Shown here in pieces: positions 33,493 to 42,749 of a stretch of 64,000 bases of DNA. Below the pieces are notes generated by a model. That model made no database searches. It saw nothing but the letters and a program-made list of their open reading frames with translations, and was not told where the DNA came from. The first letter of the stretch is position 1. Each line of letters begins with the position of its first letter. Both the position numbers and the translations under genes were made by a program. Source of the stretch: Eledone cirrhosa (taxonomy: Eukaryota). Location: NCBI GenBank assembly GCA_964016885.1, contig OZ024750.1:11532001-11596000 (forward strand), read 5' to 3'.

Positions 33493-34388
33493 GTCTTTGT
33501 CGTTTGAACGAAAGCTCACTCTCAAGAAATTCGGTGTATTGACTAAATAAATAAACAACCACCCCCATCCAGGACGTATTATCTCGTTTCTACACCCGTA
33601 TGCAAGTTTCTGTGTTTGTCACTTATTAAATACATCCGTTTGGTATTAGCTGTGTGTATAATATGAATGAATCATTGCATGTAAAGATCTAAATAAAGAT
33701 CTAAATAAAATTATCTAAGTAAATCAATCAATAAAAAGGCCTGCGACTGCTGGAACCCTATTGGTCGATTAATCGAACGGAGCTGAGCTTTATCTAAACA
33801 ACTGTGTTTAGTTAGTTTATAGTGTTGATATCAACTACCCTAGCGAAGAAGACCAGGGGTTAGTTTGCCCTCGATGAAGTGTTTCTGTGTGGTGTTCTTA
33901 CGACCCAATTCTATGTAATATTTATCAAAGACACCCCAGCTGTAACTATGTCGAGGTTTTGTTTCTAACAACACTGTCCTCATTATCGTGTTATATACAA
34001 TGTTTCCTTTAAGAAACGATAAGGTGTGATTTCAATAAGATTGGTTAATGTATGTCATCACATGTGTATATATATATATATATATATATATATATATCAA
34101 AGATTTTGGTGGTGTGGTGGTGTGTATGCTGGACATTTATGTTGATAATACATGCTGTGTGTCTAATGTTTGTGTCTATCAGACCACCACCACCAACAAC
34201 ACCACCACCACTTCAATCACTTGTTCAACTAACCATTGCTCAATTTCATCAACTCATGAGTTTGTTGTTCGAATCCTTATATATATATATATATATATAT
34301 ATATATATATATATATATATATATATATATATATATATATGTATATATATATAAGAAGAAATTAAAAGATGGTTAAAAAAGTTCCATG

Positions 34389-34459
34389 TATTTTATTATG
34401 CGCATTTCAAAAACAAATATCCTCCTGGGACTATATTTGCGTTCTCATCAGATAAAATA
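34389..34459 (-). ncRNA. Type I hammerhead ribozyme, family D variant
   Basis: Minus strand: tattttat-CTGATGA-gaacgcaaatat..atatttgttttt-GAAA-tgcgca-TA-ataaaata. Confidence 0.75.
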
Positions 34460-36093
34460 GGGAGACATGATATGATGCTTAAAAAAAAACACTTGTGAAC
34501 AAGGTAGTGTCTATATATACGCACACACACACACATATGTATGTATATATATATATATACGCACACACACACATATGTATGTATGTATATACCATTTATT
34601 TTATTTATGATACAGTGTATATATATATATATATATATATATATATATATATATATATATGATACATATGTATGTATAAATGTCCCTTGCTTTGTTTTAG
34701 CAACCAAGGCCGATACTATACTGAAATACCGTCCATGTGTGTATATGAGTCTGTCTCTCTCGGTGTATGTATATACACATGTATAAGAATTATGTACATT
34801 AAATATGTATACATTCATTTACACACTAGCACCACCCCCACCGCCTCCCATTTTCTTTTCTTTGTTTTTGTCATCTATCAAACTATACCAATACTCCTAA
34901 TAATTCCACACACATACACACCATCAGAATCACCCACACACACACACACACACACACACCATCAGAATCACCCACCCACACACACACACACACACACACC
35001 ATCAGAATCACCCACCCACACACACACACACACACCATCAGAATCACCCACACACACACACACACACCATCAGAATCACCCCCACACACACACACACACC
35101 ATCAGAATCACCCACACACACACACACACACACACTATCAGAATCACCACAAATTTCATGTGCCCCCTTTTACACCGGCATCGCACAACATCTATCAGCA
35201 GCAGCAGCAGCAGCCCGCCATCCCCGCCACTAACACCACCATCACAACTACCAACAACAACATTATCACCACCACCCCCATCGCCACTACCACCACCACC
35301 ACCACCACCAACACCACCACCACCAGCAACATCACCGCCACTACCACCACCACCAACATCACCGCCACTACCACCACTACCCCCATCACCACCACAACCA
35401 GCCACACCCACCCCCAACACTAACCCCCCCCCCACTACCACCGCCACTACCCCCCCCCCCCACTAACACCACCGCCACTACCGCCACCAACACCACCACC
35501 ACCGCCACTACCCCCATTACCCAGTCGTTCTAAATACATAACAGATTTCTAACATTTTCCAGACTCCGTCAAAGAGTTCTGGAATGTCTGTCTGTCCACA
35601 ACTCCTACTGTTTCTAGTCTATTGTTGATATCTCACCCAATTGTTCTCTCAGATGGGGTGGTCATGGTGGGTATGACAAAGGTGAACAACATCTAACACG
35701 GGTGTCTTCCCCCCACTCAACTACCACTGTATTATCATTTGCCCTTCCCTCGTCCTCCGTAACAAAATAAAGACTATTAGGGACTATTACGAAGTGCTGA
35801 GGGGATAAAGTTCATATAAAGAGTGGTGTGCTCATGCACGGAGATGCTATAATAATAATAATAATGAAATTATTGTGTAGAGTGCTCAGGTGCACTACAA
35901 CTCATCAAATGTGCATGTATAGTACATAGATTAATGTACAAATGTCAGGAAAGTAAACAGTGTATGAGTCATGATATACACGTGTGCGTGTGTATGGGGG
36001 AGGGATATTAGGTGTAGTGTTGGCGGATTTCAGGAAGCATGGAGGTTTCAAAAGATTATAAAATAGCTTCTAAAATAAGGTGAAGACTCTTAA

Positions 36094-36306
36094 CTCTTTA
36101 GCATTTAAACTGGCCATATCCGGCCAGAATTCTCTCACCTCTGTCTGTTCAAACTGGCTGTAACTGGCCACTCATACTGATGTTAAGGTATTGTTCGCAA
36201 AATAAATAATATCAAAATCTCAAAGTGAGATAATTATGTAAGGTAAAGCCTTTGCCGTGAAAATAGAATATATATATATAGAGAGAGTAATGTAAACAGT
36301 AAAGGG
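36094..36306. mobile_element. piggyBac-like MITE
   Basis: TTAA-ctctttagcattta ... gtaaaggg-TTAA; TTAA at 36090 and 36307. Confidence 0.7.
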
Positions 36307-36524
36307 TTAAAGATGGGCAAAGAGGTTGCCATCGGCCGTAAAGTTGTTAGAACAGAGCAGATTGGCTGCCATCGAATTGTCGCAGATTTACAGCAGAGTT
36401 TTCCTTCTAGAATGAAGTCCTAACAAGAACTGGAAGCCCCTCACTCCCGGTGGGCTAACCATGCACCCGGGCTACAAGCCAAGTATTTCTATGTCCCTGC
36501 GCATATACATACATGCATGCATAC

Positions 36525-36845
36525 ATGATGGCTGCCTCCTCGTTATCGAGTATGGCCATTGCACGAAAAAAAAAAATATATATATATATATACACACACG
36601 AATACATACACATACATACATACATACATACATACATACATACATATGTACGTACGTACATACATACATACATACATATGTACGTACGTACATACATACA
36701 TACATACATACATACATACATACATACATACATACATACATACATACATATACACGCACATAAACAATTAACGGTGCTGCTTTTTAGCCCAGCCAATGAT
36801 CTAAAATGTTTTGCACAAAGTTGGCAACCAAAACATTCACTGACA
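36525..36845 (-). mobile_element. RTE-type LINE 3' end (zinc finger plus tail), split by a microsatellite
   Basis: CQLCAKHFRSLAGLKS; tail caatggccatactcgataacgagg, related tail at ~43047-43082. Confidence 0.55.
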
Positions 36846-37150
36846 TTCATACAAACGTACACATGCCTACTTACATGCACGCGTGCATACAGATATGCAT
36901 GCATACATACATACATACATACATACATTATGTATGTATGTATATGCAGAGCCAATGAGAGGGGAGGGGGGTCCATCCGGTACTTTGTTCCGGAGCCCAA
37001 GAGCTATTTTGAGAAAAAAATGTTGCCTGCTTCAAACCCCAAATGGGTCTTTTTTTTTACTACCTTGCAAAATTTCTCTCGGTATGTATGTGTATATGCG
37101 TATGTATGTATATGTATGTATGTATATATATATATATATATATATATATA

Positions 37151-41093: not shown

Positions 41094-41140
41094 CTTCCTG
41101 AAGATTTCATCTGAATGAAACAGTACTAGTCCTGTAGAAG
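41094..41140 (+). ncRNA. Putative type I hammerhead ribozyme, family B
   Basis: cttc-CTGAAGA-t-ttc-atct-gaa-t-GAAA-cag-tactagtc-ctg-TA-gaag, within a palindrome at ~41045-41155. Confidence 0.65.
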
Positions 41141-41402
41141 CTCCTTCTATAAAATAAATTTTTTTTACTCTGCCATGTATTGAGTACCTTACTTACTGTG
41201 GTTATCCCCGACTCAACCCGGGACCTACGTATATATATATATATATATATATATATATATATTGGAAAGTGAGGTTTTTTTTACAAAATGAAAAATAACC
41301 GAGGTGTCCTACACGAGTGAAAGTATAAAGAAAGAGAGATGAAATCGAAAATGCAAATGGAGTCTTATTTTTAAAAAAAATATATATATTTATTTGGTTC
41401 CT

Positions 41403-41711
41403 TGAACCATCCGAGGCGTTGGCTCCAACTTTATCACCACGGTAATTCCAACAAACTTCAAATATTCCACCAGTTCCTCGGTAACTGTGTACCAATAATC
41501 CACTCTGTACATTCCAGATGTGAACACATTTATCAAAGGATCCACTTGCTAAATATTTTCCATCTGGACTAAAAGCTACACTATAGACAGGCTCTTGATG
41601 CTTTGCTAGTGTGTGGATACAAGAACCTTGCTCAACATCCCATAACCGAACTGTTGAGTCAAAACTTGCACTAGCCAATATTAATGGGGAAGAATTAGAG
41701 TTGTTAGTGCC
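41403..41711 (-). pseudogene. TBL1XR1: Intronless fragment of TBL1X/TBL1XR1/ebi (C-terminal WD40 repeats, 103 codons)
   Basis: [72 protein letters not shown]. No flanking AG/GT splice sites; terminal VxVLDLRK is missing. Confidence 0.9.
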
Positions 41712-42456
41712 GAGGAACTGGTGGAATATTTGAAGTTTGTTGGAATTACCGTGGTGATAAAGTTGGGGCCAGCGCCTCGGATGGTTCAAGGAACCAAATA
41801 AATATATATATTTAAAAAAAAAATAAGACTCCAGTTGCATTTTCGATTTCATCTCTTTTTCTTTATATATATATAACGAAGGAAATGTGGTAAGGAACCA
41901 GGTGGACCATAACGCACCAAAGTACTCAAAACTTGAGGTAGTTAGCCGTCGAAACGGCTTGAGCTCAGCTGTCGGGGTCTTACTGGTTCCTATATATATA
42001 TATATATATATATGCAAAAGTTTTATTTAAGATTGTTGGGTTACAACGAGTAAATATTTTATAACTGATATAAAAGCACTCGACAGGAAGGCATAACATA
42101 TTTTTAATATGATATCCCAGAAATATATATAACGAAATAAATATGGTTTTATAAATATAGTTTCCATTTGTTTAATATCGTATATATATATATATATATA
42201 TATATGTGTGTGTGTGTGTGTGTGTGTGTGTATATGTATCCCGGATTCAATCGGAGGTAACTACAGTAAGGTACTCAATATATAGCAGAGTATACATATT
42301 TAGTATAGAAGTGGTTTCTACGGGACTTCAATATTCTAGGAACTCATCATGATTTCCTTCAAATATATTATATATATATATATATATATATATATATATA
42401 TATATATATATATATATATATATATAAGAACAAAAGATGGTTAAAAGAGTTCCATG

Positions 42457-42527
42457 TATTTTATTATGCGCATTTCAAAAACAAATATCATCATGCAATA
42501 ATATTTGTGTTTTCATCAGATAAAACA
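42457..42527 (-). ncRNA. Type I hammerhead ribozyme, family D
   Basis: Near-identical to 37573-37643. Confidence 0.78.
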
Positions 42528-42749
42528 TGAAGACATGATATGAAGGTTAAAAAACACTTGTTATTGCATGATGATATTTGTTTTTGAAATGCGCATAATA
42601 AAATACATGGAACTCTTTTAACCATCTTGTGTTCTTATATATTATATATACTCCAGTCCTACAAACTGTAGAGTGCTTATTATCTGATATCTGCATTGCT
42701 TTATTGTACTACAATAAAACTCACCTCCTACATATATATATATATATAG

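Follow-up and report, generated by a model that had tools for sequence, protein, structure and literature searches.

We analyzed a family of short insertions carrying hammerhead ribozyme motifs in a 64,000-nt stretch of the Eledone cirrhosa genome (GenBank assembly GCA_964016885.1, contig OZ024750.1, positions 11,532,001 to 11,596,000 of the forward strand; hereafter the window, with positions counted from its first letter). We proposed that these insertions, designated family D, are likely 5'-truncated 3' ends (pseudo-long terminal repeat, or pLTR, plus tail) of a high-copy Penelope-like retroelement (PLE), probably of the Hydra clade, whose ribozyme is predicted to cut only as a dimer; we put the probability of this reading at about 70%. 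The original prediction, made from the letters of this DNA, described family D as a hammerhead ribozyme with four intact cores, but overlooked its inverted-pair-plus-tail architecture and a conserved hairpin in the tail, the features that tell the identity of the element. Since hammerheads in PLEs are known and expected, the motif itself is no surprise. We regarded family D as a real hammerhead motif, in a structural variant, within a known kind of element, the tail hairpin being its one apparently unreported feature.

Family D consisted of three insertions (A, B, and C), all located in (TA)n: two head-to-head inverted pairs and one solo tail-less arm. Their parts were as follows:

34354..34510, minus strand: insertion A, a single arm without a tail, belonging to a second subfamily and flanked by (TA)n runs, starting ~52 nt upstream of stem I
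37336..37510, minus strand: insertion B, inverted tail-less arm with a short TA-rich run at its end
37512..37768, plus strand: insertion B, tailed arm, with 62 nt upstream of stem I, core, spacer and tail, followed by (TA)22
37687..37768, plus strand: 82-nt tail of insertion B, present on one arm only
42424..42560, minus strand: insertion C, inverted tail-less arm, which follows (TA)32 and begins 34 nt upstream of stem I
42561..42732, plus strand: insertion C, tailed arm, 5'-truncated in stem II (half core), with tail and then (TA)n

Insertion B formed a 353-nt palindrome (37335-37687, 99% complementary, centred at 37511), and its arms were identical at 143/143 compared bases. The cores at 37379(-) and 37573(+) are the two arms of this one palindrome; thus, there are three insertions and not four copies, and the four cores originally predicted stand as hammerhead motifs but not as independent ones. 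The minus arm of insertion B ended in the short TA-rich run, and the plus arm extended 82 nt, to 37768. Insertion C had the same layout with a different junction, its plus arm starting inside stem II. Its arm differed from the B arms at 7 of 137 bases, and the two C arms had C's own variants in common, so that arms agreed better within one insertion (143/143) than between insertions (130/137). Because the arms share insertion-specific sequence, the mirror arm appears to have been made from the same template as its partner. Insertion A showed 118 identities and 22 mismatches to arm B over their shared span. The 5' starts of the five arms varied, lying 34, 52, 62, and 62 nt upstream of stem I and, in one arm, inside stem II. 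There were two 3' ends: the tail was found on only one arm of each inverted pair (two of the five arms overall), and the predicted cut site preceded the tailed end by 133 nt and the tail-less end by about 50 nt. As the flanks are (TA)n, a target-site duplication is indistinguishable at these insertions.

The following hammerhead cores were identified in the three insertions:

34389..34459, minus strand: core A, type I, with 13 pairs in stem II, the basal one being G.U; predicted cut after 34397
37379..37449, minus strand: core B of the inverted arm, identical to 37573-37643; predicted cut after 37387
37573..37643, plus strand: core B of the tailed arm, with stem I of 8 bp and stem II of 15 bp; predicted cut after 37635
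42457..42527, minus strand: core C, one change relative to the B cores (a G.U to an A-U pair); predicted cut after 42465

All four 71-nt cores were thus present as predicted, with CUGAUGA, GAAA, an 8-bp stem I, a long stem II, and TGCGCA, and H17 of the plus-strand copy mapped to the previously predicted cut position, 37635. A fifth core, a 5'-truncated half starting at 42561(+), was missing from the original list. The conserved core positions (C3 U4 G5 A6 N7 G8 A9, G12 A13 A14 A15.1, U16.1, and H17) were intact in 4/4 copies. Stem II comprised 15 pairs, except for the 13 of the 34 kb copy; in the core at 37573..37643(+), it opened with A10.1-U11.1 and contained a C.U mismatch at the fourth position. 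The G10.1-C11.1 closing pair was absent, being replaced by A-U in three copies and G.U in one. Stem III had been described as a TGCGCA palindrome; that hexamer was found, but the full self-complementary unit is the octamer AUGCGCAU, which takes in A15.1 and U16.1.

A type I descriptor, demanding the core and stems I and II together with a stem III that is either paired or palindromic, gave seven matches in the window, four of which were family D, and no match in any of 100 local dinucleotide shuffles. Folding energy did not separate the cores from shuffles (z from -0.75 to +0.63 in 6/6 stretches). Rfam returned no match at the gathering score and no hammerhead family among the 150 of 160 weak matches listed; the weak matches came from microRNA models and fell on the palindrome or in microsatellites. 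Of the window, which is AT-rich animal DNA, 29% was masked as tandem repeat, and the output of a generic repeat finder was dominated by microsatellites. We rejected 116 metagenome loci with the core pattern as chance matches, none having blastn similarity at E 0.01 or a stem I of at least 4 bp, and a scan of viral contigs gave no match. The near-perfect palindrome of insertion B and its TA flanks could also suggest a palindromic non-autonomous DNA transposon (a miniature inverted-repeat transposable element) with a TA target and a chance hammerhead look-alike. However, the symmetry centre differs between insertions B and C, the tail occurs on one arm, insertion A is single-armed, and the descriptor was silent in the shuffles; the variable junctions already largely refute this explanation, which we consider extremely improbable.

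We next compare these features with the known insertion footprint of PLEs. An inverted 5'-truncated copy set head to head was found in two of the three insertions and (TA)n insertion in all three. An inverted 5'-truncated copy, an optional tail, and a microsatellite bias constitute the footprint of endonuclease-containing (EN+) PLEs (PMC8557442, PMC3846280); the inverted pairs, the tail, and the (TA)n sites of family D therefore bear out the earlier hint at Penelope elements. Targeting of (TA)n is not diagnostic of Hydra because it is common to Naiad and Neptune too. The 4-bp stem III fits the Hydra hammerheads, as judged by eye against the table of PMC8557442, and family D behaves like a Hydra-clade PLE end, membership of this clade being fairly probable. 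An assignment to Naiad (HHR_half_core entries, Naiad_Ovul) was tried and rejected, as the file held no family D motif and Naiads are described without canonical hammerheads.

The tail begins with a bulged hairpin, composed of RCTC, an inner stem-loop, a 2-nt bulge, GAGY, and RC, located 51 nt past the cut site. It is present in both family D tails:

37686..37712, plus strand: tail-start hairpin of insertion B, with a 4-bp outer stem, a 4-bp inner stem, an AC-rich loop, and a 2-nt bulge
42650..42676, plus strand: second copy of the bulged hairpin, in insertion C

A sequence-only pattern for this hairpin matched 14 window sites in five families, compared with 1.3 expected and a maximum of seven in 200 shuffles. 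The inner parts, which lie outside the pattern, held 41 pairs against 7.6 expected, and 19 against 3.6 in seven representatives; neither count was reached in 20,000 shuffles. With an earlier pattern, 11 of 13 sites lay 40-90 nt before a microsatellite, versus 11% of background positions. The fifth family (23340-23367, minus strand) was found after the pattern had been defined, and its outer pair is G-C instead of A-U. Two copies of this family were observed at 23280-23383 and 27983-28088, its G-C outer pair being that of the published Hydra consensus sequences; no hammerhead was seen upstream in the 23 kb copy. Another (TA)n-flanked family of ~130 nt carries the tail hairpin with no hammerhead core seen (7566-7696, 23857-23947, 27291-27583, 41876-41990, 10056-10166, and 24256-24326), possibly as tail-side stubs of a further family.

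Read by eye, the hairpin stands at the ends of four of the six Hydra-clade consensus sequences in the supplement of PMC8557442. In Hydra-2_Amil and Hydra-2_Ajap it follows the hammerhead, Hydra-1_Crog carries a variant of it, and in Hydra-1_Ajap it opens the sequence at the 5' start; the Hydra-1_Amil and Hydra-1_Obim sequences end ahead of any tail. Six 8-mers of the hairpin 3' half gave 22 matches in that consensus file, of which the three Hydra ones had the full hairpin by eye and the 19 Naiad/Chlamys ones did not, by eye and on the sense strand. The similarity of these sequences suggests that the hairpin points to the Hydra clade, a criterion that is our own and not a published one. The hairpin is apparently unreported so far: the main text of PMC8557442 contains no occurrence of "hairpin" or "stem-loop", and it is absent from the titles and abstracts found in the literature, on which subscription papers, figures, and further supplements may bear. 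It likely marks the start of element copying and is a candidate signal for the reverse transcriptase (RT).

The abundance and variation of family D were addressed in sequencing runs. Its arm, whole or partial, occurred in 20 listed runs from 15 studies, 12 of which hold at least half of its words; no RNA run is on record among these 20. Three runs were compared in detail, X1, which may be the window's own sample, and X4 and X8 from two other studies. In X1, 3,734 contigs matched the 254-nt arm with a summed depth of 0.2-2.3 million, compared with 7-35 for single listed contigs, which shows that family D is a very abundant repeat, summed depth being no copy number; X4 and X8 gave 5 and 27 contigs. 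Loose (TA)n ends were located at 37668-37686 (X1 and X8) and at 37767 (X8), and coincide with both 3' ends seen in the window. Among the 17 variant places listed at 3% or more in X1, three lay in the 71-nt core (two pair-keeping and one in loop 2) and none in the 19 core and stem III positions, in a table that is incomplete in that it misses the window variant 37614. Both X1 variants seen in the hairpin at 37686..37712 sit in its loop. For comparison, 190 PLE families account for 6.83% of one octopus genome (PMC13282606, PMC8967140), and the accessible text of that genome paper (PMC13282606) mentions neither ribozymes nor the Hydra clade.

High copy number, together with a type I hammerhead, low GC, and a unit size within the 150-450 bp range, would also fit dispersed monomers of a non-LTR retrozyme replicating through small circular RNA. 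However, the tandem retrozyme arrays for which the original prediction advised a search were not seen, as the window contains no head-to-tail family D units; the inverted-plus-tail layout and the (TA)n targeting are PLE features; and only three low-depth joints are listed in X1, where short contigs would hide arrays. We therefore hold a retrozyme origin to be very improbable.

The 34 kb copy had been presented as the pattern expected from selection on structure, with a rewritten stem II apex. Its core bases are indeed unchanged, but the apex is a subfamily trait, as other copies in two sequencing runs (loose ends in X1 and X8) have the same apex, and the pairing argument is weak, since only five of the eight paired-site changes keep the pair. 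The 34 kb and 37.5 kb cores differed at 10 positions: five pair-keeping, three pair-breaking, two in the loop, and none two-sided; random transitions in the A-U/G.U stems of the core would keep the pair in 59% of cases. None of the 10 differences fell in the 19 positions of the core and stem III (P = 0.034); with the 13 core positions taken by themselves, P was 0.11. Among the 34 kb-type loose ends, inspected by eye, one variant keeps all five changed pairs, assuming a reference-like other strand, and another would break two pairs.

A sister family was found elsewhere in the window:

7180..7541, no strand assigned: sister family with the inverted-pair-plus-tail layout, hammerhead at 7433-7498(+), tail hairpin at 7238-7259(-)

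Its hammerhead has a long stem II and a palindrome unlike that of family D, and blastn between the two families gave E values of 0.002 and 0.005 at 63-64% identity. Compared with family D, four two-sided changes were observed: two at the base of stem II, where A-U is replaced by G-C, and a further two that swap one palindrome for another. The sister family is better evidence for structural selection than the differences within family D, where the case is thin. A second sister-family copy, an inverted pair truncated inside the core, was observed at 42017-42177, 250 nt from insertion C. A third long-stem core, at 38609(+) within 38604-38687(+), has 53 nt between the core halves and a 10-nt GC-rich palindrome as stem III; this hammerhead candidate has a tail-less end in (TA)n near 38758.

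Fold predictions were made for cores, arms, and read-through RNA. In the isolated family D core, stems I and II formed with probabilities of 0.4-0.99, the monomer stem III had a probability of 0.0, and the octamer self-duplex reached -10.5 kcal/mol. PLE hammerheads are known to have a palindromic stem III and to act as dimers (PMC4209133, PMC6765202), and the family D hammerhead is likewise predicted to cut only as a dimer. In read-through RNA of insertion B or C, the core is predicted to pair with the mirror arm, which brings the probability of stems I and II down to 0.0; by this prediction, three of the four cores would be locked in double-stranded RNA. The canonical tertiary contact between loops 1 and 2 seems unlikely with a 15-bp stem II.

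Several observations weigh against a Hydra-clade PLE end with a dimer-cutting ribozyme. The 225 frames scanned, out of 287 with at least 45 aa, included all 75 at 30-48 kb and showed no RT or GIY-YIG domain, in agreement with the earlier statement that no RT open reading frame is attached in this window; Pfam returned for these frames only a WD40 fragment and one weak HEAT match. The family D copies are too short to contain an RT-GIY-YIG frame, the part of the element in which the Hydra clade is marked by RWK and DKT motifs in the RT, a CxCX5C linker, and an endonuclease lacking CCHH. In view of the missing domains, we did not file family D as a proven PLE member. Regular expressions for PLE protein motifs gave scattered single matches with no convincing cluster, and the published PLE consensus file had no match to seven family D motifs. 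Stem II is 15 bp, compared with 3-7 bp in Hydra hammerheads, in which its base is often not G-C (PMC8557442); the G10.1-C11.1 pair of most PLE hammerheads is lacking, a departure that the published Hydra hammerheads also show; and the tail, at 82 nt, has double the usual length of 30-40 nt. Four of the families in which the hairpin was counted had been inspected before its motif was defined, which flatters the statistics of the pattern; the clade control covered Naiad/Chlamys, without the Penelope/Poseidon, Neptune, and Nematis ends. The count of two-sided changes rests on a single sister copy, and 17 of 500 shuffles reached four. Finally, stem I was lost in whole-arm folds, with a mean probability of 0.00-0.04 in 3/3 single arms. 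The closing pair, the lost stem I, and the burial of the core in duplex make it unlikely that the genomic copies in the window are working ribozymes; they would likely be dead by-products, and any function would belong to the master RNA.

The same features raise the question of whether the hammerhead is vestigial or very slow, so that family D would be a PLE end whose RNA cuts only with protein help or never. The A-U or G.U closing pair, the mismatch three pairs up, and a weak, AU-rich stem I that disappears when longer stretches are folded are consistent with this view, as are the poor in vitro cleavage of metazoan PLE hammerheads (PMC4209133) and the Anolis element, whose hammerhead required its protein for cleavage but was not itself required for insertion in vitro (PMC11167929). 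However, the core and palindrome are unchanged in four copies and free of the 17 variant places listed in X1 at the 3% level of that incomplete table, and the palindrome is maintained through a two-sided change in the sister family. We consider a vestigial hammerhead rather unlikely, and the preferred reading remains a PLE end with predicted dimer-dependent cleavage.

For such a PLE end, we proposed the following mechanism. In a tandem master RNA, two cores would pair through the self-complementary octamer and cut after AUA. The RT/GIY-YIG protein of the element would nick (TA)n, and its binding site on the RNA would be the bulged hairpin, which lies some 50 nt past the cut site. Complementary DNA synthesis starting at the TA-rich run, at the 5' foot of the hairpin, would yield the tail-less arm, and a start about 56 nt beyond the hairpin the tailed arm; an early stop would leave short stubs, and the mirror arm would be copied from the same template within the same event. 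The role of the hairpin as a protein-binding and start site is drawn by analogy with the Anolis Poseidon element PAc, in which two RT start sites located in an AC-rich stem-loop delimit the tail (PMC11167929).

Alternatively, the ~260-nt unit could be a complete element in itself: a non-autonomous PLE derivative that lacks a protein-coding master of its own and depends on a Hydra-type enzyme, acting in trans, that recognizes the shared hairpin. All five arms start at most 62 nt upstream of stem I or inside stem II, five unrelated-looking families have only the hairpin in common, pLTRs act in cis for mobilization in trans (PMC3846280), and retrozyme-like pLTR derivatives have been described (10.64898/2026.07.22.740005). 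However, the 5' ends vary by copy and 254 of the 3,734 X1 contigs overrun an end of the stretch, which one not being given, so that a defined 5' end is not shown. We regard this alternative as distinctly unlikely.

Other elements were observed in the window. A TBL1XR1-like WD40 coding fragment lies between (TA)n at 41263-41867 (best natural match TBL1XR1, E 2.6e-62). Its two arms are inverted head to head and just one of them is tailed, which is the family D layout, without a hammerhead, and a degenerate tail-hairpin look-alike may stand at its tail start; the fragment may represent a host transcript that PLE machinery copied in trans. Another hammerhead family lies at 14387(-), 31577(-), and 41098(+), with decayed copies around 19953, 20081, 41083, and 47776 and inverted pairs at 19936-20098 and 41047-41153. 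Its 3-bp stem II has a basal U.U mismatch and its loop 3 is palindromic, a combination that resembles the Hydra-clade pattern in the table of PMC8557442; the tails of this family begin with the tail hairpin of family D. A compact hammerhead at 37921-37960(-), directly after the flank of insertion B, has an extra A, G10.1-C11.1, and a minimal stem III, and is of the common PLE type. Five tandem arrays (15252-15842, 18685-19183, 47914-48787, 51449-51853, and 63085-63808, with units of 76, 98, 32, 65, and about 110 nt) contained no hammerhead descriptor match. A very abundant SINE-like (short interspersed element) family of ~190 nt was found at 9105-9300 and in about 15 more copies, the one at 37153-37335 abutting insertion B; it may be a cephalopod SINE. 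A decayed frame at 4535-5406(-) resembles a hAT transposase, and two others, at 12720-13040(+) and 25036-25491(-), resemble the C-terminal endonuclease end of a non-LTR element; these were judged by eye, with no Pfam match.

Taken together, these results allow a broader proposal, which we advance tentatively and at somewhat less than even odds. Hydra-clade PLEs, from cnidarians to molluscs, may share an unreported bulged hairpin, lying exactly between their two 3' ends, that serves the telomerase-like RT as its binding and start site, and any RNA carrying it, including several long-stem hammerhead families overlooked by standard models and perhaps a host TBL1XR1-like transcript, might be copied into (TA)n as a tailed inverted pair. 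The choice of start by PLE RTs and the optional tail form an open question with one in vitro system, and a hairpin conserved in structure across families and phyla would be a precise cis-element to mutate and rescue. It also offers a way of assigning RT-less stubs to a clade. Since the long-stem-II hammerheads of the window escape Rfam, a ribozyme-bearing family of very high abundance may have gone unclassified in genomes of this kind. The dimeric PLE hammerheads of Lunse et al. 2017 may already include long-stem variants.

Among the known systems, non-LTR retrozymes are, like family D, short, non-coding, and AT-rich with a type I hammerhead, and are thought to derive from pLTRs (PMC7229834; 10.64898/2026.07.22.740005); however, they form head-to-tail arrays, whereas family D consists of dispersed head-to-head pairs with a tail. 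The published PLE hammerheads share with family D the type I form, an intact core, a dimer-requiring palindromic helix III, and a long helix II, and are mostly single or opposite-strand motifs from truncated elements (PMC4209133). Family D differs from them in having no extra base between positions 9 and 10.1, an 8-bp helix I, and a helix II about twice the reported 7-8 bp. Similar to family D, Anolis PAc (Frangieh et al. 2024, PMC11167929) has two 3' ends separated by an optional tail, an AC-rich stem-loop at the tail region, AT-rich targets, and an upstream hammerhead. In PAc, the coding frame starts in stem II and the tail lies within the coding sequence, whereas frames from the family D core close within about 16 codons and its hairpin is conserved across families. 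Compared with the listed Hydra consensus sequences, including Hydra-1_Obim, family D showed no sequence match by the motifs tried. Family D and the Hydra elements both have (TA)n targets, a type I hammerhead near the 3' end, and a 4-bp near-loopless stem III (4 bp with loops of 0-3 nt in Hydra elements; PMC8557442). Also common to both are an inverted copy truncated at its 5' end (as noted for Penelope-13_HM), a TA-rich run at the tail-less ends, and a bulged hairpin a few tens of nucleotides past the cut site, as in Hydra-2_Amil, Hydra-2_Ajap, and the variant of Hydra-1_Crog.

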